Shown in pieces: positions 16,196-49,124 of a stretch of 64,000 nucleotides of DNA (position 1 is the stretch's first letter; every line of letters begins with the position of its first letter). The translations under genes and the position numbers were made by a program. This DNA is from Polyangiaceae bacterium. GTDB lineage: Bacteria; Myxococcota_A; Polyangia; Polyangiales; Polyangiaceae. The notes under the pieces are model-generated. The model had not been told where the DNA came from. It did not search any database and saw only the letters and a list, made by a program, of their open reading frames with translations. The DNA lies in NCBI GenBank assembly GCA_033763455.1, contig JANRKO010000039.1:96001-160000 (forward strand). The letters run 5' to 3'.

Positions 16196-16204
16196 GGTGT
16201 CTCC

Positions 16205-29130: not shown

Positions 29131-30474
29131 TCAAAGTGAAAGCGGTGTGCCGCTCAAGCCTGGATCCCCAATTGAGGCGAGAGGGACACCCATTGCCTGA
29201 GCGATAGACAGCCATAGGTCATTATGCGCCTTGCCCTGCGCGTCGACCGTTTGGCCCAGCTTCTGGAACGCCCCACCTCCCCGCCCAGCTATCATGACCG
29301 GCAGAGGGCTATGGATATGTATACCGTTGCTCATCTCTGAGGTGATCACGACAATGCTATTGTCGAGCACTGAGCCGCCACCCTCACTGGTGGCCTTCAA
29401 GCGGTTCACAAAGCCTCCCATCTGATCGGTGTACCAGGTTTGGATCTTCTGGAAGATGATCTCGTTTTCTGGGCTTTCGTGATCGTGCTGGAAGCCATGA
29501 TGTTGGTCTGGCGCTGCCGCATACTCAGGGATCCAATCGAACGTCGCGATCACTTCGACCGAAGGCGCCCACTGGAACGTCGCGATACGCGTGAGATCAC
29601 AGTTGATAGCCTGATACAAGAGATCAAGCTGGAGAGCTGCTAACTTTCGGATATCGACACCGCCCTCCTGGGCGAACTCACCTTTCACAACGCCGGTTTG
29701 ATCAGGAGCCGCACAAGCCGTGCCGGCGCCAGTGGCCACCTGCGTCAGCTGCTTTTCGAGCTCGCGTAGGGATTCGAGATGTTTATCGAGCAGTGGCTTT
29801 TCCGCGCTGCTCGTCGCTCCCTGGAGTGTCGTCACCTCAGTCTTCAAGAAATCGAGGATGCTCTTCTCACGCGCCTTTCTGAGCTCCGCCGCGGGATCCG
29901 GCATGGATCCGCCCGAAGTTGGTGCCGTGAAGCCCGCGAAAAGCTTCTCGAACATCACCACCGGGTCTCGCTCTTGCTGCAAGGCGAAGCCATCAGAATA
30001 AGCGATGCGATCCTGCGGGGTTGCTCCGGGCCAGGGCAGGCCTGCGAACTGAAGGCTTGAAAATTTGGTAAGATTACCTACTTGCTTGGCAATCGCCTGA
30101 TCGATGGAGGTATTCCCACCTCCCGTTAGCAAATTCCGCATGCCGGCTTCGTGCCCCTCCGCCGAATCCCGCTCTGCGGCTGCGAACCTGAGATTCTTGA
30201 ACAAGAGTGTGTCCGACTGGACTGGCTTCAACGAAGCGAGCTGGCCGTCGAAGTTGAAATATGCCAGGTCCGGAAGGTCATTTGTGCCACAAGTGTGGAG
30301 TTGGTAACAGGCAGAGGGCACACCGCCTGGAAATTGAAAGAAGATGGCGCGCTTGGGCGCGCCGCTCTGCGCCTCCGCCAAAGTCTGACGAAAGACTGGT
30401 GCTGCTAGAAAGGCGCTGGCACCGAGCGCTCCGAGTAGTTCACGACGGCGTAGAATTGCTCTTGAAGAAGTCAT
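29131..30474 (-). CDS. DUF1552 family protein (copy 2)
   Basis: Twin-Arg RRRELL, SIDQAIA, DPVVMFEKLF, CDLTRIAT and VLDNS..SEMS..H motifs. Confidence 0.88.
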   Translation of the reverse strand: MTSSRAILRRRELLGALGASAFLAAPVFRQTLAEAQSGAPKRAIFFQFPGGVPSACYQLHTCGTNDLPDLAYFNFDGQLASLKPVQSDTLLFKNLRFAAAERDSAEGHEAGMRNLLTGGGNTSIDQAIAKQVGNLTKFSSLQFAGLPWPGATPQDRIAYSDGFALQQERDPVVMFEKLFAGFTAPTSGGSMPDPAAELRKAREKSILDFLKTEVTTLQGATSSAEKPLLDKHLESLRELEKQLTQVATGAGTACAAPDQTGVVKGEFAQEGGVDIRKLAALQLDLLYQAINCDLTRIATFQWAPSVEVIATFDWIPEYAAAPDQHHGFQHDHESPENEIIFQKIQTWYTDQMGGFVNRLKATSEGGGSVLDNSIVVITSEMSNGIHIHSPLPVMIAGRGGGAFQKLGQTVDAQGKAHNDLWLSIAQAMGVPLASIGDPGLSGTPLSL

Positions 30475-30497
30475 CAGTGGTACTCCCTAAACTCAGC

Positions 30498-32207
30498 TTA
30501 CGGGTTCGCCGTTCTGGTAACGAACTGGTCGCTCTTGGCCAAAAGCACGAACAGCTCTCGGATGTTGTTGTTGGCCAGCTTGAGGTCTGAAAGGACGGGC
30601 GCAAGCGCCGTAACCTCCGCCGCTGTCTCCGTGTAGCCCATGGCATAACGGAACGCCTGACGAGCCATGCAGCGCTGCACCTCTGCACTCGCAGCTAACC
30701 GGGTTCCAAGCTCACTCGGGCCGTGAAACGGGCCGTTCGCGTCCTCGGTTGCCGTGAGATCGCCGGCATCATCCACTGGCTTACCGTTTTCCATGGTGCG
30801 GTACTGTCCAATGCCGTCGTATCGCTCAAACCCAAACCCAACCGGATCGATCAGCATGTGGCAGCCGGAACACGCTGGGCTACTCGAATGTGCCGCAAAC
30901 CGCTCAATCGTTGTTGCATTGGGATCTTTAGGCACGGGCATCACGTTCAGATCTTTTGGCGGCACCGGAAGCTCCTGGCAGAGCACACGGGTTCGCACGA
31001 ATTTTCCGCGAGCGATTGGGAAAGACTCATCCGAGCGCGAGTGCACGGTGAGCAGCCAGGGCTGGGAGAGCATCCCGGTATCGCCCATCAGTAGGCTGTT
31101 GAGGCTTCCGTCACCGTCCCACGTGGTCTTGCGAATGAAATCGGCCTGCGCCAAGACGGTTGCCTGCCGCATGGCCGCGTCAAACATGGGGTAAACCTCG
31201 GTTGATTTCGGCACCGTGGCGAGCCCGTCGGTCATCGTCCACATCGTCATGAAACGTTCAAGGGGGACCCGAGCCCGCGGGGACTGCATGAGACGCCTTG
31301 CTTGCGCCTCACGCGCGGCGGGCGTGGCAAGCTGATCTTGCGATGCTGCCGCCAAGAGCTCAGCATCTGGTGGAGCACTCCAGAACGCGTAGGACAGCAG
31401 TGAGGCGGTTTCGTGCGACGTTAACACGCGCGTTCCTGCAGCCCCTGGCACGCCGTACTCTGAACGGTACAGAAATTGCGGCGACTGCAGCATGGCTTCC
31501 AGAACCTGCTGAATTGAAGCCGCGTAATCGCTCCGGGTGCGCTCAGTATCAAACAGCGCCGTAAGACGCGTGCTTTCCTCGCCCGTTACCGGACGACGAA
31601 AGAGGGAAGCTCCCATGCTGCTCACGAAGCTGGCAGCGCACGCTGTTTCGGCAGTGCCTCCAGCGCAAGGCGCGAGGGTCGTGAGACCTGCGCCTGTGAG
31701 TGCTTCGACGGCGAGCTTCTTCGCGACGTCTCGGTACTGTGCCGCAAGCGCAGGCGTTACCGCCAAGACCGCGCGCGCGTTGTCGTACCCATCGACCACG
31801 TTGTCGCGAGCGAACGTCGAACCAAAACCTGAAACAATGGCATCCCCGGTTCTCGTCACTTGCGTCGTTTTCAATACGTCCAAAACGGTATTGTCGTACT
31901 CAGTGTGACTTAGGCGTCGAATACCAGGCACCACCCCGGGAGTCCCGGGCTCGCCCGTCCCCGCGCCACCAGTACCTGGCTGCGCCCCGCCACTACCGAC
32001 GCCTGGTCCGGCTCCCGTGGCGGCACTGCTCCCGCCCGCACCTGGCGTTCCCATCCCGGCGCCGCCGGTGGCTCCCGCCATGGGATTATTAGGCGTCTGG
32101 CTATTCGGCCTGCCGCGCTCCGCACCACCCTCAGCGCACCCGACTACGAAGGCTATTGTCGCGATGGCCGTGACCGGCAGCATTCCCCGTGGGTTCTTCC
32201 TTTTCAT
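30498..32207 (-). CDS. DUF1592/DUF1588 domain lipoprotein with CxxCH (copy 2)
   Basis: AAGGAG RBS before ATG 32207; lipobox VVGC; RRLSHTEYDNT, LQSPQFLYR, PIARG and CSGCHMLIDPVGFGFE. Confidence 0.88.
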   Translation of the reverse strand: MKRKNPRGMLPVTAIATIAFVVGCAEGGAERGRPNSQTPNNPMAGATGGAGMGTPGAGGSSAATGAGPGVGSGGAQPGTGGAGTGEPGTPGVVPGIRRLSHTEYDNTVLDVLKTTQVTRTGDAIVSGFGSTFARDNVVDGYDNARAVLAVTPALAAQYRDVAKKLAVEALTGAGLTTLAPCAGGTAETACAASFVSSMGASLFRRPVTGEESTRLTALFDTERTRSDYAASIQQVLEAMLQSPQFLYRSEYGVPGAAGTRVLTSHETASLLSYAFWSAPPDAELLAAASQDQLATPAAREAQARRLMQSPRARVPLERFMTMWTMTDGLATVPKSTEVYPMFDAAMRQATVLAQADFIRKTTWDGDGSLNSLLMGDTGMLSQPWLLTVHSRSDESFPIARGKFVRTRVLCQELPVPPKDLNVMPVPKDPNATTIERFAAHSSSPACSGCHMLIDPVGFGFERYDGIGQYRTMENGKPVDDAGDLTATEDANGPFHGPSELGTRLAASAEVQRCMARQAFRYAMGYTETAAEVTALAPVLSDLKLANNNIRELFVLLAKSDQFVTRTANP

Positions 32208-32673
32208 AGCTCTCCTTCGCTCACAGCTCATTACGGAGCTCAGTCTGATCAACGGCACGCGCAGGCTCCTAGTGGCAATGGTCGTCGGCACGCCGACAAC
32301 TCATCTAGGTAAACGAATTGTTCGCGATCAGACTCAAATACACCAGGAGAATTTCCACTAATTTCAAGCAGCTTTGCGCCAACGGTATCAAGCAGTGACC
32401 CGCACATATCCGACATCGTCGACGCGTTCGCGCTCCACCCGGGATTGATAATTACAAGCGGCACTTTCGAGAGCGGTACATATTGCCCACATCGCTCTGG
32501 TGTCTAAGAGCTTTACGGTCCAATCCCGCTATTAATTGTCCAGCCACACGATGCGTGTCCGGACATATTTGCGTCAGATCAGGCCAACACGGTAAGGTAT
32601 CGGCAGAGCCGTTCCGGGTGGTCGCGACGCTCGGGCCGCGGGTGGTGCTGGCTACGTGCCACTCGCCCTGCCC

Positions 32674-33906: not shown

Positions 33907-34125
33907 AGCGGGTTCGTCTCATCCCCCGATGCGGGGCCGTTGGCAACTTGGGGTACGGGAACAGTCGAAAGCTCGGCTCCCTATGATGGCGGGCTCACGC
34001 GCGCTGCACTGCCCTGTCAGGGGTTGCGCTCCCCTCCGGGGAGACGTTTAGAGACTACGGACCAGGATTACCCCGGCTGGCGACTCGACGAGGCGGCACT
34101 TGCCCTTGCAGGGTGTCACGGTGAC

Positions 34126-34347
34126 CAATACGAACAGCTCGACCCTCGCCTGACGCGACAGATTGACAAAGCGCTAGGGCGCATTCAGTCCCAGTCTGAG
34201 ATGGGAAAACCGCTACGGGGCGAACTGCACGGCATCTGGTCAGAACGCGTTTCGTTATTTCGCATTCTTTACAAGATCAATCGCTCCACCATTGAAGTTC
34301 TAATTTTGGTTATCGAACATCGAAAGCTTGTTTACGGAGGGCATTAA
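34126..34347 (+). pseudogene. RelE/ParE family toxin, N-terminus atypical or eroded
   Basis: QYEQLDP...GKPLRGELHGIWSERVSLFRILYKI....VLILVIEHRKLVY; no convincing start codon with RBS found, so the left boundary is approximate. Confidence 0.65.
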
Positions 34348-34351
34348 ACCC

Positions 34352-34552
34352 ATGCGACACACTATTCTTTCTATTAGCAAAGCAAAAACGCATCTGCTCG
34401 AGCTCGCTCGCCAAGTGGACGAAGAGGGTCGCGCCTACGTCGTTACCAAAGACGGAGCCCCACTCTGTGCGTTGGTGCCTATGGAGGCCTACGAGGCCAT
34501 GCTTGAGGCGTCCTTAGTCGCACGAGATGGCCGCCCCCTCATTTGTTTGTAG
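34352..34552 (+). CDS. Phd/YefM family antitoxin (C-terminus possibly truncated)
   Basis: GGAGG at 34336-34340, then MRHTILSISKAKTHLLELARQV..GRAYVVTKDGAP..ALVPMEAYE. Confidence 0.8.
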   Translation: MRHTILSISKAKTHLLELARQVDEEGRAYVVTKDGAPLCALVPMEAYEAMLEASLVARDGRPLICL

Positions 34553-34689
34553 GCCAGTGAAGGGTGTAAATGCGCCAGATAGATTCCCGGTGAAGGCCTG
34601 CTCAATCGAATTTGGCCCTTCTGCACTTGAGCACTGATTCCGACGCACTTGAGCGGTAGGTCGTCGACAGCGGAGCCTCGCGATGGGTG

Positions 34690-34885
34690 CACGCGACATC
34701 CGCCGCACAGCACGCCGTCTCGAGAACGCTAAGCTCGCCATGCGTGCTCCATGGAACATGTGCGTTGTGATCCGCTACGTGGCCTCGAAAAAGGCGTTGT
34801 CCGGCAGTTGGCTTCCTGCCGATGGATCCGTGAAAAACACAACGTCGGTGTCGTCGGCACGACGGGCGTAAGCAAGAGCTACCTT
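34690..34885 (+). mobile_element. istB: Degenerate IS21 IstB (helper ATPase) fragment
   Basis: RRTARRLENAKL, a frameshift, then MEHVRCDPLRGLEKGVVRQLASCRWIREKHNVGVVGTTGVSKSYL with a decayed Walker A; similarity ends after that. Confidence 0.75.
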
Positions 34886-35110
34886 TGGCTGCCCTCACCG
34901 ATTGCGCTTGTCGCGCTGGGAGGAACTCGCCCTAGCACGCATAGCTTGATGCAACCATTCGTAGGCCCTTACCGAGCTGTTACTGCCGGACCAGGGGCCT
35001 ATCACTTGCCAATCTCGCAGGCTGCGCGCAAACGCAACGTTCCACCTTTGGGTTGACCTCACTCCAGGTGCGAAACTGAATTCCGCCCGCCCCCCAAACC
35101 CGGAGGTTCT

Positions 35111-35815
35111 TCATTGAATGGGGCTGAACACGTACCCGAAGTGACAGAACGTGCAGCTGAAGGCTCCGTCTTTAGGAGCTGTCTTGAAGAAGGGTGCCGC
35201 TTCGCTAAACGCGCCGCCCGTTTGGTCATTAAACAGCTTCTTATCGCCAACGCCGTAGTACGCCCACGCCGCCGCGTCACCGTCGACTTTCAAATTGGCA
35301 GCTACTCCAATCATTGCGCCTTGCGCGTCGTACATTTCCTTCACCACCATGCTGCCGGTCGTGTGGGGCTTTTCCACTTTGTTCATCACCAGTGCGCCAT
35401 TTCCGGCCGCAGATGATGCTTGGAGCGTATCATTGAAATACACGCGAACCTTGCCGTGGGGCGACGCGGAGTTAGGCAGTGCATCGCGAGGTGCGGCCCC
35501 CTCGCTCTTCCACGGCGCCGCCTTGTGCGTACCCGCAGCGAGAAACGCCTTGATGGCATCCACGGTTGCTTGCGGCGCCGAGCCCGTCGGGGTGTTGCCG
35601 CCTCCGCCGCTACCAGTACTCGCCCCACCCGTAGCTTTGCTCCCACCGGTGGTGCTGGCAGCCCCGCCCGTAGCCTTGTTGCCACCGACGGCCGTACTCG
35701 AACCGCCTGTACCCGTTTGCGTGCCTCCCCCGCTAACGCTGTCGTCCGATGCGCAGCCGACCGCAAACAAAGAGATAGAAGCACCTAGAAGCAAAGACCA
35801 ACGGAGGTTCAACAT
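35111..35815 (-). CDS. Lipoprotein with a cytochrome P460-like monoheme domain
   Basis: Lipobox FAVGC, Gly/Ser/Thr linker, HGKVRVYFN, GSMVVKEMY, WAYY and C-terminal CTFCH. Confidence 0.65.
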   Translation of the reverse strand: MLNLRWSLLLGASISLFAVGCASDDSVSGGGTQTGTGGSSTAVGGNKATGGAASTTGGSKATGGASTGSGGGGNTPTGSAPQATVDAIKAFLAAGTHKAAPWKSEGAAPRDALPNSASPHGKVRVYFNDTLQASSAAGNGALVMNKVEKPHTTGSMVVKEMYDAQGAMIGVAANLKVDGDAAAWAYYGVGDKKLFNDQTGGAFSEAAPFFKTAPKDGAFSCTFCHFGYVFSPIQ

Positions 35816-36009
35816 GGTGCGCACTTTATGCCCGGAGGCCGGAGCGAGCCAACAAAAACGTATCTTGTGCGTGGGTCCCCCGCTCCCGGCCTCCAGGCCT
35901 GCAAGAGCACTGGCCGCAAACAGCCTCCGTAATCTGGCCGAATCGAACGATGCTGAGCACCCAGGGGCATGCTGCCCGTCAACAACGCACAGACATGCGA
36001 TTCACGTCG

Positions 36010-36096
36010 AACATCCCCGACCGACACCCGTTCCAAACATTCCCGAAACATAAGGGAGGCGAGAGTTCCGACACATTCCCGAAACCGGAGGTCTCG
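36010..36096 (+). promoter_or_regulatory. Leader with repeated ACATTCCCGAAAC and an RBS-sequestering hairpin
   Basis: Exact 13-mers at 36037-36049 and 36073-36085, degenerate ACATCCCCGA at 36011; stem 36060-36070 pairs with 36086-36096, which includes GGAGG. Confidence 0.55.
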
Positions 36097-36101
36097 TCAT
36101 T

Positions 36102-37190
36102 ATGTTCAGTCGCCGAAGCTGGCTATCCGCCGTATGCGCTCTACCCCTCGCTCTCATTGGCTGCCAGAAGAGTGAAGCACCCGCTCCCCAGGTAACGCCC
36201 GAAGCCGCCAAAGCAGAGGCCGCGGTGAGTCCGGCGAAAGCTGAAGCGAAACCGGAAGCGCCGGCCCCGACGAAGGGCAAGCCGCTCGCTATTGCTTACA
36301 GCGACTGGCCCGGTTGGGTGGCCTGGGAAATTGGGATCCAAAAAGGCTGGTTCAAAGAAGCTGGCGTTGAGGTGGATTTTAAGTGGTTTGAATACGTACC
36401 TTCTATGGAGGCCTTCTCCGCCGGAAAAGTCGATGCCGTGACGATGACTAATGGCGACGCTTTGGTGACAGGTTCAAGCGGTGCGCCAAGTGTTGCGATT
36501 CTGATCAACGATTACAGTAACGGCAACGATATGGTGGTGGCCAAGCCCGGCATCAACAAACCAGCTGATTTGAAGGGAAAAAAGGTTGGCGTTGAAGTCG
36601 GATTTGTAAGCCACCTTTTGCTCCTCAACGCGCTCAAAGCGGGCGGCCTCACCGAAAAGGACATCAAGATCGTCAATGTTCCCACGGATCAAACTCCGCA
36701 AACCCTAAAGTCCGGTTCGGTGGATGCGATCGTTGCGTGGCAGCCGAACAGCGGTGCCGCTCTCAAAGAGGTGCCCTCCGCCAAGGCTGTGTTCACAAGT
36801 GCCAACGTGCCCGGCCTCATTTACGACGTGCTCAGTGTTTCCCCCAAGAGCCTCACCGAACGACGTGAAGATTGGAAGAAGGTGGTCGGGGTATGGATGC
36901 GCATTGCAGATTTCGTGACCGATCCGAAAAATGCCGACGAAGCCGCCAAGATTATGAGCGCTCGGGTGGGCCTCAAGCCTGAAGAATACAAGCCCCTAAT
37001 GAAGGGCACATTCTTCTTGAACCTTGCAGGCAATCAGAAGCACTTCGCCAAAGGCGATACGCTCGAATCCATCTATAATTCCACTGAGGTGGTTAACAAA
37101 TTCCAAGTGGAAAACAAGGTCTACAAGCAAGCCGCTGTGATCGAACCGTACCTCGATCGCTCCCTCGTGGATGAACTCGCAAAGAAGTGA
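36102..37190 (+). CDS. ABC transporter substrate-binding lipoprotein (SsuA/NMT1-like), probably guanidine
   Basis: Lipobox [19 protein letters not shown] and LKGKKVGVE; first gene of the operon containing the GdmH-like enzyme. Confidence 0.85.
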
Positions 37191-37225
37191 ACCAGAGCGC
37201 GCTGAATCCTGAAACCTAAGAGTAG

Positions 37226-38362
37226 ATGAGAGTGGCACGAACCGGGCTGTTTGCCGTCCGCAAGGAACTCCCCACACGGGCGCGTTTGGTCCTGGTAACG
37301 CTCGCGTTCGTGTTGCCGCTCGCCGTATGGAGCTTCGTTAGCTACGTGCCTTGGGTTTGGCACCCGCTGGTGTTGGTAGAGCATGCCGGCGACTCCAAGG
37401 TGGCAGGAACCTATGACTACTTGGAGGCGGGCCAACTCGTCGAAAAAGAGGCGTTCGTCGGCCGCAACCAAGAGCTTGCAAGGGCGGGCAAAAAGCTCGC
37501 ACAGGGCTCGCCGGCAAACCCCATCTACTTGCCCGCCCCGCACGAGGTTGCCCGCGCGTTCTATACCGCCTTCACAACGGAACCCGAGCGTACAGGCGAC
37601 AAGTGGCTCCATGAGAGCCTTTGGCACAGCTGCAAGATCATCTTCGCGGGTTTCTTCTATGCGGCAATCTTGGGCGTTCCTCTCGGCATTCTGTGTGGGA
37701 CCTTTGGCTTTTTCGCCAAGTTATTCGAGCCCTTCGTGGATTTTGTGCGCTACATGCCAGCGCCGGTATTCGGAGCGCTGGCAGTGGCCGTAGTGGGCCT
37801 TGAAGACGAACCCAAGATCGCGATTATCTTCATCGGTACGTTCTTTCAAATGGTGTTGGTGGTTTCAAACACGACGCGCCAGCTGGATATTGCGCTGTTG
37901 GAAGCCGCGCAAACACTGGGCGCCAAAAACCGACAGCTTTTGATGCGGGTGGTGGTGCCGGGGATCTTGCCTCGCCTGTATCAAGATATGCGGATCTTGA
38001 TCGGATGGGCATGGACGTATCTGGTAGTTGCTGAGCTCATTGGTGAAAAATCCGGCATTAGCGCATTCCTTTATCAGCAACAGCGCTACCGCCACTTCGA
38101 CAACGTCTACGCGTCCATCATCATGATTGGCCTTATTGGCCTTCTCACCGATCAGTTGCTCGCCTTTGTCGGCGGGTTCCTCTTTCCCTGGGAAGGAGAA
38201 GGTCAAGGCCTCTCGCGCTGGATCAAGAATCTGCGCGGGCGTCGTGCTGCTCGCGATTTAGCCAGCCCGAGGACCCAGAGCACAAGCGCTAGCCTTGCAA
38301 CAGTTGTCGGCTCCCAAGCTATTTCGCTCACGGGTTCGACGCACACAAAAGAGTCCCCATGA
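37226..38362 (+). CDS. ABC transporter permease (SsuC/TauC-like)
   Basis: [22 protein letters not shown] (EAA loop) and WTYLVVAE. Confidence 0.9.
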
Positions 38363-39264
38363 CCCTCGATGCATCCGCTGCCATGAGCACTGACGATCGC
38401 CTCGCCCTGCCCGATTACAGGGACCAATCCCCTGAAGTTGCCGCCTATTTTCGCGAAATCAGGCAACGCCCAGTGGTCATGAGCGTGGAGCAGCTCTCGC
38501 GCCACTTCGAGAGCAGCCGTGGCACTATCACCGCCCTTTCAGATATCAACTACGACGTCCGCAAACGTGAGTTCATCTCCGTCATTGGGCCCTCGGGCTG
38601 CGGCAAATCCACGCTCATTCGTATCCTTGCGGGGTTGGATTACCCTTCCGAAGGCACCGTGCTTCTGGATGGCAAGCCCGTGCATGCTCCCGGAGCGGAC
38701 CGCGGCATGGTGTTCCAGGGCTACACGCTTTTCCCCTGGCTCACGGTCCGTAAGAACGTGGCCTTTGGTTTGCGCATGAAGGGCATGAAAGGTAGCGAAG
38801 TGGAAAAGCAGGTAGATCACTGGCTAGAGGTGGTTGGCCTCACTCGCTTTGAACGCCATTATCCGCATCAGCTCTCTGGCGGTATGAAGCAACGCGTTGC
38901 CATCGCGCGAGCACTCGCCAATGGGCCCCGCATCTTGCTGATGGATGAACCTTTTGGCGCCCTGGATGCCCAAACCCGCGCCAGCATGCAGGCTCATCTG
39001 CTTCAGATCTGGCAGGACGTTGACGTTACTATCCTGTTCATTACGCACGATTTGGACGAGGCCGTTTACCTCTCCGATCGCATCGTGGTGCTCGGCGCCC
39101 ACCCTGGCCACATCCGCGAGATCATCGAGGTGAATGTGCCGCGGCCGCGCTCGCCATCGCAGTTCCTTACTGGGCATTTCCTCGCCACAAAAAAGCGACT
39201 AGAGGAGCTCATCCACCCCGCCCGCCCTGCCCACGCTCCCAACCACGAAGACCTCGAGAACTGA
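38359..39264 (+). CDS. ABC transporter ATP-binding protein (SsuB/TauB-like)
   Basis: [28 protein letters not shown] and ITHD; ATGA overlap with the permease. Confidence 0.93.
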
Positions 39265-39265
39265 T

Positions 39266-40423
39266 ATGTCTTTCTACCTGCGCCACGCACCGGGCCGAAG
39301 AAACCACAACCGCACGCTACCGGACGTCACCCAGTTCAACGGCTACAAAGCTCAAGATTCGGAAGCTCTCTTACCCACGACGGAGTGGGAGTCCGAGTGC
39401 CGGCGCGGCCAGGAGCTCGGCCTCATGCCAGCCGACTCAATTGAAGACAAGCGCGAGATCAGCTGCTTCCAACGGGGAGAGCTGCCGCACTGGTCGGGCA
39501 TCAATACGTTTCTCAAGGCTCCCTACGTCGAAGATGTGCGCAAGGTCGGCGAGTACGATGTCGCGATTCTTGGGGCGCCTTTTGACGTGGGCACCACCTA
39601 CCGCTCTGGCACCCGCTTTGGACCCCAGGGCATTCGCCGCATCTCTTCCCTTTACACGCCGTACAGCTTTGAGATGGGCATCGACCTCAGGGAAAGCCTC
39701 AAGATCTGCGATTTAGGGGACATCTATTGCCCCGCCAACATCACCAAATCACACGATCAGATCAGCAAAGGTGTGGCCCATGTGCTTTCGCACGGCACGT
39801 TGCCCATCATCTTAGGTGGGGATCACTCCATCGGTTACCCAACGGCCCGCGGCATCGCTCAATGCATCGAAGGCAATGTGGGCATTATTCATCTCGATCG
39901 CCATGTCGATACTCAAGAGAAAGACATGGACGAGATCATGCACACCTGCCCGTGGTTCCACGCCACCAACATTCCCAATTGCCCTCCTCAGAACTTAGTG
40001 CAGCTCGGCATCGGCGGCTGGCAGTGCCCCCGCCCCGGCGTAAAACACGGCCGCTCCATGCGCACCACCATCCTCACGGTGGACGACATCGAAAGCATCG
40101 GCATCGAGAAGACCCTCGAAATCGCGCTAGAAACAGCCTGGAAGGGCGCAAGCGCGGTGTTCCTGTCGCTGGATATCGACTGCGTGGATGCGGGCTTCGT
40201 GCCGGGCACTGGGTGGCCGGAGCCGGGTGGGTTTTTGCCACGCGAGGTTCTCGCTCTTTTGCGGGGCGTTGCCAAAGAAGGCATCGCTGGCATGGAAGTG
40301 GTCGAAGTGGCGCCCCCTTATGACATCTCGGATATCACTTCGCTCTTGGCCGTTCGTGCCATCTGCGATGTGCTCGGAGCCATGGTGCAAAACGATCGCA
40401 TCGGTGGTCGTCTCAAGGCTTGA
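39266..40423 (+). CDS. gdmH: Ureohydrolase (arginase/agmatinase fold), GdmH-type guanidine hydrolase
   Basis: Metal ligands GGDHS, DRHVD and DIDCVD. N-terminal extension RGELPH.GINTF plus MHTCPWFHATN and PGTGWPEPGG match my recollection of Synechocystis Sll1077 (GdmH) rather than SpeB. Confidence 0.85.
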   Translation: MSFYLRHAPGRRNHNRTLPDVTQFNGYKAQDSEALLPTTEWESECRRGQELGLMPADSIEDKREISCFQRGELPHWSGINTFLKAPYVEDVRKVGEYDVAILGAPFDVGTTYRSGTRFGPQGIRRISSLYTPYSFEMGIDLRESLKICDLGDIYCPANITKSHDQISKGVAHVLSHGTLPIILGGDHSIGYPTARGIAQCIEGNVGIIHLDRHVDTQEKDMDEIMHTCPWFHATNIPNCPPQNLVQLGIGGWQCPRPGVKHGRSMRTTILTVDDIESIGIEKTLEIALETAWKGASAVFLSLDIDCVDAGFVPGTGWPEPGGFLPREVLALLRGVAKEGIAGMEVVEVAPPYDISDITSLLAVRAICDVLGAMVQNDRIGGRLKA

Positions 40424-42306
40424 GCCACTCAGTCGAAGTGTTCGAGGAACACACGGGAGAGCCAAGTGCCACGGGCCCAGCATTTCTATTGCTGGGCGAC
40501 CTGGGTGCAGCCGCGCCTGAGCTTGAGGTCGTCCGGGAGCGGACGGCCAAAGTGCTTGGCTTTGCCCCCGCGCTCGTGACTGGATATTTGCCGACGCGCT
40601 CCGAGGCACGAGCTGGCTTTGGGGCATGGGAGGCCGATCCACTAAAGAACCCCGTGATTTTAGCGTTGTCGAAGTTGGCAACGGCGGGGCACTCCGAAGT
40701 TTACATTTTGCCGGTGCGCCCGGATCTCGGTATTACCGAAAAACAGATCATCACCGAAGCAGTCCGTGAAACGCAGCGTACGTTTCCGAACGTGCGGGTG
40801 CGTTACGACTCGGTGGAGCCCTGCCACCCGCTCTTGCTTTCGGCCTACTTGGAAAGCGCCGCGCTAGCACTACACCGGCTAACGCCTTCGGGCCCAGGGC
40901 AGCTCGGGGTCCTTTTGGTATCGAGCGGTGAAGACGACGCCGTGCCACGCGCACACGCCTACCAACTCATGCGCCTGCTTTGGGAACAGCTCGGCGTTGC
41001 CAAGGGGGAAGTGGCTTTCCTTCGCCACAACAGAACCCCAGTGCCCGAACAGCTTGATGCCTGTTTGGCAACGGGCCTCTCGTGGGTGGTGGTGCCACAA
41101 TTTCTATTTCCTACCGAGCACTTTGAGTTTCTGCAAACCATCTACACGGATTTCGTTCGCCGTCACGAAATTGAAAACGATTGGGCGCTCTCAGAGCCCA
41201 TCGCACAACACCCGGCGTTCACGGCCTGGCTGGAGCAACGCCTCGTACGGATCTGGCAGGAAAATCGGGACAAGACGGACGCGCGCCAACCCACCGCGAA
41301 ACCTCGCAGCCCGGAGGCAAGCCTCCTACACAGGCCCGATGGAGCGATCGCCATGCGACCCGACACCAAGATGGAGTCCGGTTATCCCGGTGCCTGGCTC
41401 GCTGAGATTCGCGACCCCTCCGCGCTCACCCAGCTGACACGTGGCGCCGGAATCGAAGGAGAACGCATCTTCGTTAAGGTGACCTGGCACGGTTACGCAC
41501 AGGGCACGTACACCGATCCGGTAGCTCTCGAAACCTTACTAAAAGCACTTCCTGGCCGCGCCGTTATTCTGGAGGGACACACCTCCAGTCGCAATCAAGG
41601 TGGCGCCGAATGGGACTGGGAAAACGAAAGCCGCGCCCATCGCGCCTGGATCGTAGAACAAGATCGTGAATACCTTGAACGCACTGGGATCTTAGAAGTC
41701 TTAGAGCGCTACGGTGCCACCTATCTCAACCTCACGGAAACCTGGTGGGATGGTGCGTGCGCACCTGCCGCCGAAGTGCACGCGCTTTTGAAGGCTCAAG
41801 GCGTGGAGCTAAAGTTTTCAGAGCTCGCCGAGTTTGTCCCTCGGGTTTTCCTGGAAAACCGAGGCGCGCCCTTCATTAGCTATGCGCGTTTCAAAGGCCC
41901 CACCCGGCTCTCGCTAGCGAACCTCTTTGGCCTCTTACCGCCGCCGTTACGAACGGCGTGGCACGGCCCTAACATTACCTATTTTGCGCAGGTTTGCTGC
42001 GATCTTGCCAAGCTTTACGGTGCCCTGTTCACTACGTACGGCCTCGTGGAGTCGCTCAACGTCGCTGTGCGTTGGGATAGAAAAGGGCTCTACCGCAGCC
42101 GTTGGGGCAATTACGACCTCGTGCCACGGCCTGGGCTCGTCACTCTAGCCGCAGGTTTTGCGGGCGCCGATGTATTGGGCAGCCGCTTGCAAGGGCAAGA
42201 CGTACGGAAGAGTGCGTTCTTCGACGTCGTGCGCCAAGAGCTTGGCTACAACGCCGACCTTGAAACTCTGCCGGTCAATGCAGATCTGGTGCGTCGATTT
42301 GTATAG
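40420..42306 (+). CDS. Fusion protein: degenerate two-domain CbiX/SirB chelatase-like + DUF362-like domain
   Basis: N-half: FPNVRVRY..PCHP, GVLLVSSG.DD..AYQLMRLLWE..EVAFL, VVPQFLF. C-half: IFVKVT..YTDP..ILEG, RFKG..LSLANLFGLLP..WHG. TTGA overlap with gdmH. Confidence 0.7.
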   Translation: MSHSVEVFEEHTGEPSATGPAFLLLGDLGAAAPELEVVRERTAKVLGFAPALVTGYLPTRSEARAGFGAWEADPLKNPVILALSKLATAGHSEVYILPVRPDLGITEKQIITEAVRETQRTFPNVRVRYDSVEPCHPLLLSAYLESAALALHRLTPSGPGQLGVLLVSSGEDDAVPRAHAYQLMRLLWEQLGVAKGEVAFLRHNRTPVPEQLDACLATGLSWVVVPQFLFPTEHFEFLQTIYTDFVRRHEIENDWALSEPIAQHPAFTAWLEQRLVRIWQENRDKTDARQPTAKPRSPEASLLHRPDGAIAMRPDTKMESGYPGAWLAEIRDPSALTQLTRGAGIEGERIFVKVTWHGYAQGTYTDPVALETLLKALPGRAVILEGHTSSRNQGGAEWDWENESRAHRAWIVEQDREYLERTGILEVLERYGATYLNLTETWWDGACAPAAEVHALLKAQGVELKFSELAEFVPRVFLENRGAPFISYARFKGPTRLSLANLFGLLPPPLRTAWHGPNITYFAQVCCDLAKLYGALFTTYGLVESLNVAVRWDRKGLYRSRWGNYDLVPRPGLVTLAAGFAGADVLGSRLQGQDVRKSAFFDVVRQELGYNADLETLPVNADLVRRFV

Positions 42307-42384
42307 CGGGATTGTGAAGGCCCACCTGATCCGGTAATGCTTTGCCGTTCAGGCAACAGTTCAACCCCAATAGGAGATGCCCGC

Positions 42385-42954
42385 ATGATGCATTCAGTAT
42401 CCACCCGCCGTGTGTTCGCCGCCGTGGCGGCCCTTTCCGTATTGCTCGCCGCTCCGCTTGCTAGCGCACTCGACGCATTCCTTCAGATCGAGGGCGCGGA
42501 GATGAAAGGGGATTCTAAAGACAAAGACTTCAGGGATGCGATCGAAATCGATAGCTTCTCATTTGGCGTTCAGAACACCGGTGCGAGCTCGCCCGGAGCC
42601 GGGAGAGGGCGAAGCGCTCCCAACTTTACCGAGCTTAGCGTCCAAAAGAGCGCGGACTCTGCCAGCACGTATCTTTTCATGGCAGCCGCCAACGGCACGC
42701 TACTCAAGAGTGTGACTCTCTCGCTCAAAAAAAGCGGCGGTGATAAAGGTGGCGTCTTCTACAAAGTCACCCTCAAAGACGCCCAGGTAGCCAGCGTACA
42801 AACCTCAGCAGCCCCCAAAGGCGATGCCGTGCCCACTGAAAGCGTAACCTTTTCGTTCGCGAGCATCATCATCGAATACACCGCCGCTGATCCCAAAGGC
42901 GGACCTGGAAAGAAACATACGTTCAGCTGGGATACGAAAAACGTCAGGCAATAA
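42385..42954 (+). CDS. hcp: Hcp (T6SS tube-like) protein with an N-terminal export signal
   Basis: DAFLQIEG..KGDSKD...IEIDSFSFG, K.ADSAS, YKVTLKD..VAS, PTESVTFSF..I.IEY and SWD; AGGAG RBS precedes a 28-aa signal ending ASA. Confidence 0.85.
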   Translation: MMHSVSTRRVFAAVAALSVLLAAPLASALDAFLQIEGAEMKGDSKDKDFRDAIEIDSFSFGVQNTGASSPGAGRGRSAPNFTELSVQKSADSASTYLFMAAANGTLLKSVTLSLKKSGGDKGGVFYKVTLKDAQVASVQTSAAPKGDAVPTESVTFSFASIIIEYTAADPKGGPGKKHTFSWDTKNVRQ

Positions 42955-43025: not shown

Positions 43026-43544
43026 GTGCCCGATTCATTTCTGCAAATTCCGTTGCGAACGCTCGAAGGCGAGCCGTATTCATTGGCTGAGCATGCTGGA
43101 GATGTGTTGTTGATCGTGAATGTTGCGAGCGCCTGCGGATTCACACCGCAATACGCAGGGCTTGAGGCGCTGTATCGTAAGCACAAAGATCAGGGGTTCA
43201 CGGTGCTTGGGTTCCCGTGCAACCAATTCGGCAAGCAAGAGCCTGGGGACCCGGAAGCGATCCGAACATTCTGCAACAACCGCTTCCAGATTACTTTCCC
43301 AATCTTGGAGAAAGTGGACGTCAATGGGTCGAATGCACACCCGCTTTACAAGGCCCTGAAGCGTGCTGCGCCGGGCCTACTCGGGACGGAAGCCATCAAG
43401 TGGAATTTCACCAAGTTCTTAGTCGACCGAAGCGGGAAAATTGTGAAGCGCTTTGGTCCGGCGGACACGCCAGATAAGCTTGAACGGCCAATTGCTGAGC
43501 TTCTCGAGAAACCTTTTGCCTCCAACACGGTCAGTCGGAAGTGA
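43026..43544 (+). CDS. Glutathione peroxidase family (Cys-type, BtuE-like)
   Basis: NVASACGFT, GFPCNQF and IKWNFTKFL motifs. Confidence 0.95.
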   Translation: MPDSFLQIPLRTLEGEPYSLAEHAGDVLLIVNVASACGFTPQYAGLEALYRKHKDQGFTVLGFPCNQFGKQEPGDPEAIRTFCNNRFQITFPILEKVDVNGSNAHPLYKALKRAAPGLLGTEAIKWNFTKFLVDRSGKIVKRFGPADTPDKLERPIAELLEKPFASNTVSRK

Positions 43545-45044: not shown

Positions 45045-45179
45045 AACGCGAACTCTCGGGCTTCCCGGCATTTGGCGCTGTTTTTCGGTACGAGAGGTAC
45101 TTCGCATGACAAGTAACTTGGCCTTCAAGCGGGCGCACACTTGCGTTTGCGGGCTGTTTCGACAACCGTGCAAGTCACT

Positions 45180-47744
45180 ATGGGAATTGGCGGTTTCTCA
45201 CGGAGATTGGGCGGTAAGAGTTGGCTTAGGCTAGGCCTTTGGGGGCTTGTGGCGAGCTTTTCCATAGGAGCCTGTGGCAATTCGGACGAAGAAGAGATCC
45301 AGAAGGCGAAGCTCTCTGAAGGCTGCCTCATTAATAGCGACTGCCGAGCGCCGTTAGCCTGCGCCTTTCGCCGCTGTCACACGGCGTGTGAAACCACCCG
45401 AGATTGTGTCGCTCCGCAACTATGCGTGGCGAGCGACAAGCCATTTTCTGTGTGTCAGCTCGAAGACGAGCGTCAGTGCACGTACCATAGTGAGTGTGCT
45501 GGCTCACAGCTCTGCGGCGTTGACGGAAACTGCCGCGACCAGTGTGCCACTTCACGGGATTGTCTGCGGGATCAGGTATGTACGCAAGGAACCTGCGCTG
45601 AGCCTAGCGAACTTCTGAATGGCAGCTTACCGCCGAGTCCGGCGGCTACAGCCGTTGGAGGCCAGGTGTGTACCTACAACTCGGAATGCCCAGGAGATTT
45701 GGTATGTCGCGCAGGTGTGTGCGGCAAAGAGTGCCTTGACACCAAAGATTGCGCGCCGGGTTACCGCTGTAACGCGCAGAATCGTTGCGAAAGTCCCTTA
45801 CAGGGAAGCGCGGGCGCGGGCAACTTGGCGTCGGGTGGCAGCGCCGGCAGCGGTGGCGGCGGCATGAGTGGAGGCAACCAGAACGCAGGCGGAAGCCCGC
45901 TCACTTCCGATGGTGCCGGAGGTATGAGTGCGGCCACTGGAGGTAGCACTGCCACTGGAGGCAGCGGAGGTGCGGGCCCAGAAGTGTGCCCAGGCGCTGG
46001 CTGGACACGCCCCTGCCAAGCGTGTGCCGACGGCCCTGTCGGTGTCCAAGCCTGTGAACAAAACCAAGCTGGCTTTGCTTGGGGCGCGTGCATCGGCGGC
46101 CAGGCTAGCGAAGCCTGTGATGGGAAGGACAACGACTGCGATGGCACACCGGACAACGGAGTGGGCTTCGAGTGCATCCTCGGGCAGACAGCGCAGTGTA
46201 GCCCAGGCGGCAACTGCGCGAGCATTCAGGGGAGCAAGAGCTGCATCGTCGTCGGCAATCTCTGTAAGTACGGTGCTTGCGCCGCGGGCCTAGAAATCTG
46301 TAACGGTGAGGACGACGACTGCAACGGCACTAAAGACGACGGCGCAGGCATGACGTGCATCCTCGGCTCTTCCCCGAGTGCTTGCACGATTTCTAAAAAC
46401 AACTGTAGCCAACCCGGCATTCCCTCCTGCGATGCGGCTTGCCACCTAAAATGCGCACCCGCCGCCGAGATTTGCGACGGGATTGACAATGATTGCGAAG
46501 GCACCATCGATGTTGTTCCGAACGGTATTCAGTGCAAAAAAGACAGCACCGAGCCGTGCATGGTTCAAGCGTGCAACATGACGCTCACAGGCTCACGCAC
46601 GTGCTCAAGTGGCTGCGCCTGGGGCTCTTGCGTGGTGGCGGATGCCTGCAACGATCTGGATGATTCTTGTGACGGCAGAATCGACGAGGGTTACAAGTAC
46701 GTCGCTGGTGTTTCGGGCGTACTGCTGGCTGGAACGTATAACAACACCGGAGTAGCTAGCGTTCTGGATGGCAACACGGTGTGGGTCGGCTGGACCGACG
46801 CAGCGCTGGGGTCCGACAAGCTTCGAGTCGGCAAGTTTGACGTGGCCACGGGCAGCCCCCAGTCGCTGATTGCGGACGCAGGAGTGGGGTTAAGCTTTGG
46901 GAACTACAATCCCGCCTCGGGCGTCAAGATCGGCAACGACGTTTGGTTTGCCGTGATGGGAGCTAACACCACACAGATTTGGGTAGCGCGCGCTAGCGGT
47001 GGCTCACCGGGCGTGGCTCCGGTGCTCACCACTTGGCAGATCGCCGGTCTGCCGGCTTCCGGCGGCTACTACCGGCTCGGGGCTCTCGCTTCAGACGGCA
47101 CGGATCTCTACATCACATACAGGCTAGCTACGGGTCCGCTCCGCGCAGCGCGAATTTCGACATCCACTCTCTTGGTAACCTGGGACCGCGAACTCACGCC
47201 CTCCGAGCCAGCCCCTGCGGCACTCGCGTTCGAGGGGAGCAGCTTGCACGCCATTTGGTGCGATACCGCCCAGGCCAAGTTGCGCCACGCTCGCTTGTCT
47301 ACAAGTGACGGCGTCCCCACGGTGGCGTCTCATATCGTGGTGAACAGCGAATGCACGGCGCCGGGTAAACGCGAAGCATTCGTGGAATACACAAATGGAG
47401 CACTCTTGACCGTGGCTCGATCCGCGACCTTTACCGCTCAAGTCGCCACACTGTCGTTAACTGGGGTAACGCAATCCACCCAAAGCTTCGCCGTGCCCGG
47501 GCAAAATGCTCTGTACTTTGCGCTCCGCGTTGGCAATACCTCAGCCTTCGCGGTAGGGAGCGAAGCGGGGGTTCGTCGCTACTCACAACAAGGAGTTCTC
47601 GCCAGCTCGGCCACCGAAGGCCCCTCCTTGAGCACCTATTCCGCCAATGGCAGCCTACTTTATCCAGCGGGTGGGCCGGTGAGCATCGGAGTGAATCCGA
47701 CGAATCCAGCGCAAATTGTGATGACCCGACTGCAATGTCCGTGA
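45180..47744 (+). CDS. Large Cys-rich lipoprotein with repeated E-x-C-(D/N)-G-x-D-(N/D)-D-C motifs
   Basis: Lipobox IGAC, C-rich repeats, Gly linker, EACDGKDNDCDG / EICNGEDDDCNG / EICDGIDNDCEG, and a beta-rich C-terminus. Confidence 0.8.
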   Translation: MGIGGFSRRLGGKSWLRLGLWGLVASFSIGACGNSDEEEIQKAKLSEGCLINSDCRAPLACAFRRCHTACETTRDCVAPQLCVASDKPFSVCQLEDERQCTYHSECAGSQLCGVDGNCRDQCATSRDCLRDQVCTQGTCAEPSELLNGSLPPSPAATAVGGQVCTYNSECPGDLVCRAGVCGKECLDTKDCAPGYRCNAQNRCESPLQGSAGAGNLASGGSAGSGGGGMSGGNQNAGGSPLTSDGAGGMSAATGGSTATGGSGGAGPEVCPGAGWTRPCQACADGPVGVQACEQNQAGFAWGACIGGQASEACDGKDNDCDGTPDNGVGFECILGQTAQCSPGGNCASIQGSKSCIVVGNLCKYGACAAGLEICNGEDDDCNGTKDDGAGMTCILGSSPSACTISKNNCSQPGIPSCDAACHLKCAPAAEICDGIDNDCEGTIDVVPNGIQCKKDSTEPCMVQACNMTLTGSRTCSSGCAWGSCVVADACNDLDDSCDGRIDEGYKYVAGVSGVLLAGTYNNTGVASVLDGNTVWVGWTDAALGSDKLRVGKFDVATGSPQSLIADAGVGLSFGNYNPASGVKIGNDVWFAVMGANTTQIWVARASGGSPGVAPVLTTWQIAGLPASGGYYRLGALASDGTDLYITYRLATGPLRAARISTSTLLVTWDRELTPSEPAPAALAFEGSSLHAIWCDTAQAKLRHARLSTSDGVPTVASHIVVNSECTAPGKREAFVEYTNGALLTVARSATFTAQVATLSLTGVTQSTQSFAVPGQNALYFALRVGNTSAFAVGSEAGVRRYSQQGVLASSATEGPSLSTYSANGSLLYPAGGPVSIGVNPTNPAQIVMTRLQCP

Positions 47745-47771: not shown

Positions 47772-49124
47772 CTAAGTCGTTAACCCCGGCACGCCCGTTG
47801 TAGCAAGCGCTACATCGCTCCCAAAAGATGTAACCGGGGAGCCCATGATGTTTGCGATGGATAGCAACACTTGGCTCATGTTGCTGCCCGGGTGCCGCAG
47901 GTGTTGATTGCCGGTCAGCTTGCCGCCCGCTTTGCCGATGAGCATGACTGGGAAATCGGTCATCTGGTGTGTCTTACCCCACGCGGTGTCCGTGCTTGAG
48001 TAGATGAGGCTGTAGTCTAGCAAGTTACCCCCTCCCACGCTGATGCCCTGCATCTTCACGAGCATTTCTGCCAGAGATTCCATCGTAAAAAGCACGCCTT
48101 TGTGGACGCGTGTCTGAATATCTGGGCCGGTGTGTCCGCCAGGATCTTCGTGGCAAATCGTGTCGTGGTAGTCGGCGTTCATGTCAGCGCCAAGGCCTCG
48201 GAAATACACGTGCGCCGCCGGCAACATGAACACATAGCTGCCCACGTTCGTGAGCCCGCAGGAAAGTGCAAGAATCATGAGATCCGTCATCGCGGTATTC
48301 ACGGCTGGGGTGGCCTCCTCGTTCTCATCTGCGTCAACGGTTGGGCGCGTTGGGGAGCCGCAAGCGAGCTGTACAGGAGCCACGAGGCGGGACTCAATGG
48401 CACGGATCCCCTCAAGGTGGCTCTCGAGCCTTTGTTGATCTGCCATGCCGAGCCGCCCACGCAAGGCCGCGCCATCGGCGAGCACGGAATCCAACACACT
48501 CCGCTTAACGCCTAGCAATGGAGAGGCTTGCGGTGTGCTCGTGCCCCCCGGCGCCATTTGCGAAAATAGCCTATCAAACACCACCTTTGGGGCGTATTCG
48601 GGGCGCAAGGGAGCTCCGGGGCCGCGGTGAGAAACCGCGTGCAAGGTGATGGCGCCATCTTCATTCGGCGTAGCTGCTGTAACGCCAACTTCGAGCGAAC
48701 GAAACGGCATCCCCGCGGAGGTGATGTCTGCCACCACCTGATCGATCGACGGACCTCCGGGCGTGGTTGTACCTGGAAGAAAGCCACCCACCGTCGCAGC
48801 AGCGGCGCCGCCCCAATGCGTACCAGCATCCACCAAGCTGCCATACCCTGACACCACGGTGAGATATTCCTTCACATGCGCGAGCGGCATCAACTCAGGG
48901 CTAAGCTGCCAATTGGACCCAGTCGCTTCGGGAATAAACATTCCCGGCAAGACACCGTTACCGAAGAACCACGTCAGATAGCGCACCGGTATCGCCGCAC
49001 CCTGTGCGAACGCTGTGCCATTCCCGTTTAACATGATATCGAGCGTGGGTAATGGCACGGCTACGGCTCCACCCGTGGCGAGCAGGCCCTTCAAAACGTG
49101 GCGTCGGCTCAGAGTATTTTTCAT
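47772..49124 (-). CDS. DUF1552 family protein (copy 3)
   Basis: LSRRHVLKG Tat motif, FFGNG, SIDQVVA, PKVVFDRLF and LLDYS. Confidence 0.9.
   Translation of the reverse strand: MKNTLSRRHVLKGLLATGGAVAVPLPTLDIMLNGNGTAFAQGAAIPVRYLTWFFGNGVLPGMFIPEATGSNWQLSPELMPLAHVKEYLTVVSGYGSLVDAGTHWGGAAAATVGGFLPGTTTPGGPSIDQVVADITSAGMPFRSLEVGVTAATPNEDGAITLHAVSHRGPGAPLRPEYAPKVVFDRLFSQMAPGGTSTPQASPLLGVKRSVLDSVLADGAALRGRLGMADQQRLESHLEGIRAIESRLVAPVQLACGSPTRPTVDADENEEATPAVNTAMTDLMILALSCGLTNVGSYVFMLPAAHVYFRGLGADMNADYHDTICHEDPGGHTGPDIQTRVHKGVLFTMESLAEMLVKMQGISVGGGNLLDYSLIYSSTDTAWGKTHQMTDFPVMLIGKAGGKLTGNQHLRHPGSNMSQVLLSIANIMGSPVTSFGSDVALATTGVPGLTT

Follow-up and report, generated by a model that had tools for sequence, protein, structure and literature searches.

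The subject of this report is a run of five genes at positions 36102–42306 of a 64,000-nucleotide (nt) stretch of DNA from a Polyangiaceae bacterium (assembly GCA_033763455.1, contig JANRKO010000039.1; the whole stretch is called the window below), and above all the last of these genes, which encodes a 628-amino-acid (aa) fusion of a chelatase-like N-half and a DUF362-like C-half (Table 1). Judged from sequence similarity, the best explanation for the run is a guanidine assimilation operon. All five genes lie on the same strand and form the single run that the initial annotation described. Between successive open reading frames (ORFs), from 5' to 3', there is first a gap of 35 nt, then an overlap of 4 nt, then a gap of 1 nt and finally another overlap of 4 nt. 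The junction between the hydrolase gene and the fusion gene reads gcTTGAgcc, with the TTG start of the latter overlapping the TGA stop of the former, which confirms the overlap reported earlier. An alternative in-frame GTG start at 40438, 18 nt downstream of the TTG, is also close to the hydrolase stop, so that the tight packing of the genes holds with either start.

Table 1. Features of the proposed guanidine operon in the window, and His-rich protein genes at three plasmid loci (positions within the respective locus).
Feature	Position	Strand	Match or record
NMT1/SsuA-type solute-binding protein, 362 aa	36102–37190	+	Pfam NMT1 E 3.2e-20, NMT1_2 E 7.4e-20
ABC importer permease (GimB-like), 378 aa	37226–38362	+	Pfam BPD_transp_1 E 2.2e-22
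ABC importer ATPase (GimC-like), 301 aa	38359–39264	+	Pfam ABC_tran E 7.2e-35
Predicted guanidine hydrolase (GdmH orthologue by sequence, arginase fold), 385 aa	39266–40423	+	Pfam Arginase E 6.3e-76
Conserved putative GdmH partner (fusion), 628 aa, TTG start	40420–42306	+	Pfam CbiX, residues 176–273, E 2.8e-12
N-half of fusion (residues ~20–290), SirB/CbiX-like class II chelatase fold, two subdomains	40477–41289	+	
C-half of fusion (residues ~296–628), predicted divergent DUF362 domain	41305–42303	+	
His-rich small protein gene, L082	8178–8627		plasmid CP049031.1
His-rich small protein gene, L083	8187–8702		plasmid NZ_CP139692.1
His-rich small protein gene, L084	8166–8705		plasmid NC_012586.1

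The hydrolase is by sequence an orthologue of the guanidine hydrolase GdmH and not a SpeB-type agmatinase, because the solved guanidinases lie far ahead of guanidinobutyrase and agmatinase in a phmmer search of all PDB chains. The top match is 9fek (E 1.4e-160, 538 bits, residues 29–384 aligned), followed by Synechocystis GdmH (7esr/7oi1, E 3.1e-150; 504 bits for 7esr). The next ureohydrolase family is represented by the guanidinobutyrase 3nio (E 9.9e-48, 166 bits), and the E. coli-type agmatinase 7lol follows at E 3e-34. With the NCBIfam agmatinase models, the protein scores below their cut-offs. The assignment as a guanidinase in the initial annotation is thereby borne out. The closest solved relative, 9fek, is the guanidinase of Nitrospira inopinata (PMC11410670, in excerpt). 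The motifs GGDHS, DRHVD and SLDID, which we take to carry the six metal ligands of arginases, are present in the hydrolase and invariant among 36 fusion-linked homologues. Cyanobacterial GdmH depends on nickel, requires GhaAB for activation, is co-transcribed with these HypA/HypB-like maturases and is associated with the guanidine importer GimABC (PMC12704784, in excerpt). By analogy with the characterised family members, which need nickel, the window hydrolase is predicted to be nickel-dependent as well.

Upstream of the hydrolase, the sequences point to an ATP-binding cassette (ABC) importer of the NitT/TauT type. Its ATPase matches NCBIfam nitrate/taurine-type ATPases with E ~1e-77. The solute-binding protein (SBP) matches TIGR03427 ("putative urea ABC transporter SBP") with E 1.1e-48 and 166 bits, which is below the cut-off of 333.9; a homologue from Bryobacterales passes this cut-off with 469.6 bits. 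The GimA protein of Synechocystis, also of the NitT/TauT type, binds guanidine with a dissociation constant of ~97 nM (PMC12704784, in excerpt). In the scheme we propose, the ABC importer would carry guanidine into the cell, and the GdmH-type dinuclear-metal ureohydrolase would split it into urea and ammonium. The fusion gene would be translationally coupled to gdmH.

Searches with the fusion returned 548 relatives at E ≤ 1e-3. The 120 listed relatives, the window's own entry (P0003, 100%) aside, are 550–650 aa long and 44–75% identical to the query over 83–99% of its length; those that are named in their source appear as hypothetical protein, CbiX/SirB N-terminal domain-containing protein, CbiX or sirohydrochlorin ferrochelatase. 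Among 1.84 billion representatives at 50% identity, 259 match the fusion at E ≤ 1e-3, many of them shorter proteins or fragments that span just one half. The full sequence matched no PDB chain at E ≤ 1. An AlphaFold2 model built from 121 sequences reached a predicted local distance difference test (pLDDT) score of 93.0 and a predicted template modelling (pTM) score of 0.85. Foldseek comparison of the N-half with PDB structures found SirB from Bacillus subtilis first (5zt7, E 1.4e-7, template modelling (TM) score on the target 0.72), then HemH, CbiK and CbiX; LsrB, AmiC and ribose-binding protein were among the weaker matches. A profile of the family also detected SirB among PDB sequences (E 1.5e-5, profile positions 35–262), spanning both subdomains, and the Pfam CbiX match falls on the second subdomain. 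SirB structures have been solved with Co, Ni and Fe.

These matches uphold the two-domain CbiX layout proposed in the initial annotation, and the loss of the usual histidine motifs is equally evident. The strings LGDLG and LGITEK that had been singled out as replacing GHGS and AGHxK are present in the translation, as LLGDLG and DLGITEKQ. The SirB histidine of "AAHAKH" aligns to a variable Leu/Gln column in the family profile, and residue 171, which in the second subdomain corresponds to the GHGS-type position, is a histidine in only 37 of 75 proteins. The N-half keeps the chelatase fold but not the chelatase site. Like the class II (ATP-independent) chelatases SirB and CbiX, it consists of two Rossmann-like α/β subdomains that form a cleft. 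Unlike them, the window protein lacks the conserved metal- and tetrapyrrole-site histidines and carries a fused domain of 330 aa.

The C-half, as judged from intermediate sequences and its predicted fold, is a divergent DUF362 domain. Pfam itself gives a weak match for the window sequence (PF04015, E 0.038, 14.5 bits, cut-off 24), and residues 296–628 match no Pfam family at E ≤ 0.001. Stronger support for the DUF362-like domain of the initial annotation comes from two other sources. The ESM Atlas returned DUF362 clusters (feature score 0.95, TM 0.90 over 301 residues), and half of alignment A4 (36 of 72 sequences, relatives at 22–35% identity) matches DUF362, with a best E of 9.4e-18. The AlphaFold2 model of the C-half alone is confident (pLDDT 97.1, pTM 0.94). 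Foldseek found no PDB match for this model at E ≤ 1e-3, and its fold therefore provides no functional lead; a profile of the C-half against PDB sequences gave only a chance-level match of 25 residues to acetylpolyamine amidohydrolase (E 0.81). The Fer4 domain of many DUF362 proteins is absent.

This half is the best conserved part of the protein and looks functional. The word "degenerate" in the initial annotation consequently holds for the chelatase half and fails for the C-half. Among 75 family members, K353, H357, E385, N437, E440, K492, N501, R511, H515, C526, E544 and D584 are invariant, and H387 and C527 are conserved in 74. These residues fall into two classes. K353, E385, N437, E440, K492, N501, R511, H515, E544 and D584 form a polar core that is also kept in 78–100% of 36 distant DUF362 relatives. 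By contrast, H357, H387, C526, C527 and several arginines are specific to the fusion family and are not found in these relatives. DUF362 shares the Pfam clan CL0471 with the N-domain of LarA (DUF2088), an enzyme that uses a nickel-pincer cofactor (PMC11770544, in excerpt). Judged by titles and abstracts, and by passages of PMC11770544, PMC5742341 and PMC10892978, the papers retrieved on DUF362 assign it no function. K492 and H515 might be counterparts of LarA cofactor residues.

Is the fusion linked to gdmH in other genomes, as the proposal in the initial annotation requires? One genome per species was scanned for relatives of the fusion, and the best 80 of 120 loci were used, with phyla assigned by record titles. 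At least 1250 nt upstream of the fusion gene are available in 75 of these loci, and 72 of the 75 have gdmH as the immediate upstream neighbour in the same orientation. The other five loci end sooner at a contig edge, where two of them show the 3' end of a gdmH gene. The loci come from eight phyla, namely Myxococcota, Acidobacteriota (mostly Bryobacterales), Planctomycetota, Verrucomicrobiota, Latescibacterota, Poribacteria, Tectimicrobiota/Entotheonella and Binatota; the Planctomycetota loci include one from the cultured Singulisphaera acidiphila DSM 18658. This linkage across phyla is our main new result and supports that proposal. Thirty-five fusion-linked GdmH homologues are 57–94% identical to that of the window (alignment A3), the nearest locus being from a metagenome-assembled genome (MAG) of an uncultured member of the Polyangiaceae (GdmH 94% identical). 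This makes the myxobacterial origin named in the initial annotation plausible. Pairwise distances of GdmH and the fusion co-vary across 61 pairs (Mantel r 0.63, with 0 of 999 permutations as high). Two of the three exceptions are orphan copies of the fusion without adjoining gdmH (loci L002 and L035). The third is a stand-alone C-half of 303 aa (L080, 10037–10948; 60% identical to residues 314–627), which sits in a urease/glutamine synthetase/ABC cluster of Latescibacterota, without gdmH and beside a truncated SBP match. This locus is probably a deletion derivative of an L050-type locus.

All neighbours other than gdmH vary in order or presence. Relative to the gdmH–fusion pair, the ABC importer is upstream, downstream or divided between both sides (40–47 loci), and homologous SBP genes occur in 47 of the 80 loci. 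Urease genes with ureD, ureF and ureG flank or enclose the pair in about 22 loci; in Bryobacterales it stands beside a full urease set with its own UreD/F/G. An SSF transporter or an OprB porin adjoins the pair in some loci. A metallo-β-lactamase (MBL)-fold gene with a weak GloB-like match was observed in 15 of 80 loci, in Acidobacteriota (for example 11637–12575 of L072), either directly after the fusion gene or divergent before gdmH; it is absent from the window. A glutathione peroxidase gene is found near Bryobacterales guanidine/urease clusters, also in 15 of 80 loci (for example 5339–5974 of L064), and the window has one at 43026–43544, two genes downstream of the fusion.

The genomic surroundings bear on another explanation, in which the fusion does something unrelated, such as a step in tetrapyrrole or cofactor synthesis, and only hitch-hikes with gdmH. 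In its favour, some relatives are annotated as sirohydrochlorin ferrochelatases and two orphan copies stand apart from gdmH. Against it, the pair stays together in eight phyla while every other neighbour changes, the histidines that chelatases use for catalysis are not conserved, and no tetrapyrrole-biosynthesis genes occur among the neighbour clusters of the loci or among the window ORFs scanned. The context of the fusion is guanidine and urea metabolism (gdmH, ABC importer, urease, MBL-fold protein, glutathione peroxidase) rather than the tetrapyrrole synthesis in which SirB and CbiX take part. We consider such hitch-hiking very improbable.

In cyanobacteria, the slot after gdmH is occupied by nickel maturases. 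The initial annotation had noted that the window contains no hypA/hypB-like gene, and three lines of search agree with this statement: no HypA, HypB/CobW/UreG or urease family of Pfam matches any of 55 window ORFs, a hidden Markov model (HMM) derived from UreG matches none of the six-frame segments of at least 60 aa, and a HypA-like pattern does not occur in the window. Across the 80 fusion loci, the HypB signature is absent, and the HypA-like pattern returned two transposase-like matches only. The UreG-built HMM detected UreG in 22 loci and one marginal match in L048 (E 8e-4). It found no other G3E GTPase in the 80 loci, 57 of which are, like the window, without any match.

The window operon can be compared with described systems. 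The gdmH-ghaA-ghaB and gimABC genes of Synechocystis sp. PCC 6803 (sll1077–sll1082) resemble the window operon in the GdmH-type hydrolase, the NitT/TauT-type importer and the presence of an accessory gene directly after gdmH (PMC12704784, in excerpt). The two systems differ in the position of the importer, which is upstream of gdmH in the window and downstream in Synechocystis, and in the accessory proteins. Those of Synechocystis are HypA/HypB-like, a Zn-ribbon protein and a GTPase, whereas the window encodes a single 628-aa protein with a chelatase fold and a DUF362 domain. In comammox bacteria, the guanidinase gene is preceded by a riboswitch and an APC permease (PMC11410670, in excerpt), whereas the window offers an ABC importer and a putative dedicated partner. 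HypA/HypB-like proteins also accompany the nickel-dependent metformin hydrolase, where MetAB are encoded next to the enzyme and required in vivo (PMC11271267, in excerpt).

A search in the reverse direction, with the window GdmH against a plasmid collection, returned 11 records with 53–63% identity, of which seven were examined; four further Sinorhizobium fredii records were left out. The fusion is absent from all seven, and four of them lack an obvious partner: two from Rubrobacter plasmids, one from Nonomuraea and one from Embleya. On the remaining three, two Rhodobacterales plasmids and pNGR234b of S. fredii NGR234, an SBP-permease-ATPase set precedes the hydrolase gene, and an ORF of 149–179 aa abuts or overlaps its end. 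The products of these three alphaproteobacterial ORFs have an extremely His-rich N-terminus and a conserved C-terminal domain (Table 1). They match no Pfam family, hhalign detects no resemblance to the fusion (probability 0.1), and the literature searched contains no description of such proteins after gdmH. We regard this small protein as a candidate metal chaperone of guanidinase, the second undescribed one beside the fusion. Lineages thus differ in the candidate metal-handling protein that occupies the slot after gdmH. In a quick maximum-likelihood tree of 72 GdmH sequences, whose long branches leave the deeper joins unsafe, 59 fusion-linked sequences form one clade (100 in the Shimodaira–Hasegawa-like approximate likelihood ratio test), which is sister to the clade linked to His-rich proteins (99). 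A second clade (99) holds six further fusion-linked sequences, which come from Entotheonella, Binatia and one unclassified MAG. Partner labels cluster on the tree, with none of 500 shuffles as low.

From these observations we propose, with no more than middling confidence, that the fusion is a dedicated maturation factor of GdmH, probably for nickel. By analogy, we infer that it interacts with GdmH, that it binds a metal and that this metal is probably nickel. The protein would hold the metal, probably Ni2+, and pass it to apo-GdmH without the help of a nucleoside triphosphatase (NTPase), thus filling the role of the cyanobacterial GhaA/GhaB pair. Its DUF362-like half would be the working end, with the invariant H357, H387, C526 and C527 added to the conserved DUF362 core, while the N-half, having lost its tetrapyrrole-type histidines, would act as a scaffold or docking module. 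We favour this proposal because of the position of the gene after gdmH and the analogy with the other occupants of this slot: that a HypA/HypB-like pair, a His-rich protein and the fusion should all serve the metal centre of GdmH is the most economical reading. The proposal also fits the origin of the N-half fold, which comes from metal-inserting class II chelatases, and the family-specific histidines and cysteines of the C-half, which DUF362 relatives lack. The clan shared by DUF362 and the N-domain of the nickel-pincer enzyme LarA lends further support, as do the linkage to gdmH across phyla, the co-varying distances and the lack of matches to HypA/HypB-like genes in the surroundings of the pair.

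Several observations weigh against a maturation role. Known nickel insertases for buried sites (UreG, HypB, CooC) use an NTPase, and the fusion contains neither a Walker A motif nor a match to the cobW/HypB/UreG families of Pfam. It has no His-rich tract either (16 His in 628 aa), and the histidines of the chelatases are replaced or, at residue 171, present in only half of the family. The polar residues kept throughout DUF362 look like a catalytic or ligand site, which would favour an enzyme. The orphan copies L002 and L035 have no adjoining gdmH to serve. GdmH is apparently able to work without the fusion, since none of the seven plasmid loci encodes it, four of them lack any obvious partner, and comammox Nitrospira genomes contain no nickel chaperone according to the excerpt of PMC11410670, whose authors call nickel loading unclear. 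The absence of HypA and HypB was judged from sequence motifs and a UreG profile, only within 10 kb on either side. A complex prediction of GdmH (residues 29–385) with the fusion (residues 16–628), made without control runs, gave a score of 0.00 against a mark of 0.32 and counts neither way. Our confidence stays at this middling level because binding and the metal site are inferred, the chelatase histidines are gone, an NTPase is missing and the polar core is enzyme-like.

The polar core could instead belong to an enzyme of guanidine-related metabolism, in which the DUF362-like half acts on a small molecule and the chelatase-fold half binds a substrate or cofactor. Such an enzyme might release guanidine from a substituted guanidine ahead of GdmH, or convert a product or side product. 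Ten polar residues conserved in 75 of 75 fusion proteins and in 78–100% of 36 DUF362 relatives are typical of an active site, and in the confident AlphaFold2 model they are placed at the strand ends of a Rossmann-like domain. LarA, in the same clan as DUF362, is itself an enzyme, and class II chelatase folds resemble periplasmic binding proteins, as the weaker Foldseek matches to LsrB, AmiC and ribose-binding protein illustrate. On the other hand, the conversion of guanidine to urea and ammonium requires no extra step (PMC12186494, in excerpt), the importer is of a guanidine- or urea-binding type, and neither a cofactor nor a substrate can be named. The same slot is held by nickel chaperones or His-rich proteins in other lineages. 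A urea-degrading activity would be redundant in the 22 loci that share urease genes. We rejected a urea-degrading enzyme as the main reading on this ground: these loci have urease and its own UreD/F/G in the same cluster, which favours a GdmH-specific factor over a second enzyme for urea. We regard an enzymatic function as distinctly less probable than a role in GdmH maturation.

Regulation of the operon raises a further alternative. At gathering scores, no Rfam model matches anywhere in the window, and between 34300 and 36300 none reaches even E ≤ 10; there is no guanidine-I (ykkC) riboswitch at the window operon, in contrast to the cyanobacterial type. Riboswitch control is a feature of cyanobacterial and comammox gdmH genes. 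Regulation here must therefore differ from that in cyanobacteria and comammox bacteria. A scan for promoters and terminators gave a result no better than that for shuffled sequence. With no riboswitch upstream, control by other means could fall to the fusion, as a non-catalytic subunit, stabiliser or ligand-sensing regulator of GdmH that responds, for example, to guanidine, urea or metal by gating. Strict adjacency, together with coupled translation, suggests that both proteins are made in matched amounts, their distances co-vary, and a strongly conserved surface helix of the fusion (R177, Y181, M184, R185, L186, W188, E189) could form an interface. Yet the characterised GdmH enzymes form homo-oligomers that are active in the absence of any such subunit (PMC11410670, in excerpt), the Pfam scan found no DNA-binding or signalling domain in the fusion, and the conserved buried polar residues of the C-half suggest a chemical or metal-binding function and not regulation alone. 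We therefore consider a purely regulatory or structural role unlikely.

If the fusion does mature GdmH, it might represent a new, NTPase-independent class of nickel insertases for dinuclear nickel ureohydrolases, which would combine a chelatase scaffold without tetrapyrrole site and a DUF362 domain with a gained His/Cys metal site. We advance this more specific idea tentatively, as something we would sooner doubt than assume. Compared with DUF362 proteins in general, the C-half shares the polar core and differs by the added H357, H387, C526, C527 and several arginines and by the missing Fer4 domain. The alphaproteobacterial His-rich proteins occupy the same slot after a gdmH homologue, itself behind an SBP-permease-ATPase set, but are much shorter.

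The DNA around the operon contains several other features. An orphan gene for Hcp, the tube protein of type VI secretion systems (42337–42954, + strand; Pfam E 2.9e-31), starts 30 nt past the fusion gene; the scanned window ORFs include no other gene of such a system. Short ORFs immediately ahead of the operon (33940–35056) give weak matches to ParE toxin and to the IS21 helper IstB. The interval 33907–36101 contains no convincing gene and may hold remnants of mobile DNA. The window also has three DUF1552 (HXXSHH) genes (14771–18091, 29131–32291 and 47772–49124); two of these stand together with DUF1585/1588/1592/1595 (PSD/PSCyt) genes, as is typical in Planctomycetota and Myxococcota. MopE-type putative metal-binding motifs (Pfam E 1.3e-9) occur in an 867-aa protein, whose gene lies at 45141–47744, four genes past the fusion.

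Taken as a whole, the locus appears to be a guanidine operon of the GdmH type whose accessory protein is widely conserved and undescribed. Full-text literature searches returned no description of the fusion, although an earlier mention is possible in subscription papers, which were outside the search; the terms CbiX, chelatase, sirohydrochlorin and ferrochelatase do not occur in the guanidine papers searched. Guanidine now counts as a widespread source of nitrogen, and for comammox bacteria also of energy. How GdmH is loaded with nickel outside cyanobacteria has been called unclear (PMC11410670, in excerpt), and the fusion is an obvious candidate for this task. Many of the phyla that encode it are abundant soil and sponge lineages. 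Should the maturation role prove true, the fusion would be a new kind of metal-delivery protein. If it further proved to be an insertase of the new class outlined above, a DUF362-type domain would gain its first function, and the slot after gdmH would have received an occupant on at least three independent occasions (HypA/HypB-like proteins, the His-rich small protein and the fusion). With a confirmed maturation role, hundreds of genes now called "sirohydrochlorin ferrochelatase" or hypothetical would receive a correct annotation, and active guanidinase could be better produced in heterologous hosts, for example in ethylene-producing strains or for the clean-up of guanidine and metformin. Even without a mechanism, the gdmH–fusion pair is a better genomic marker of guanidine use than the annotation "agmatinase family".

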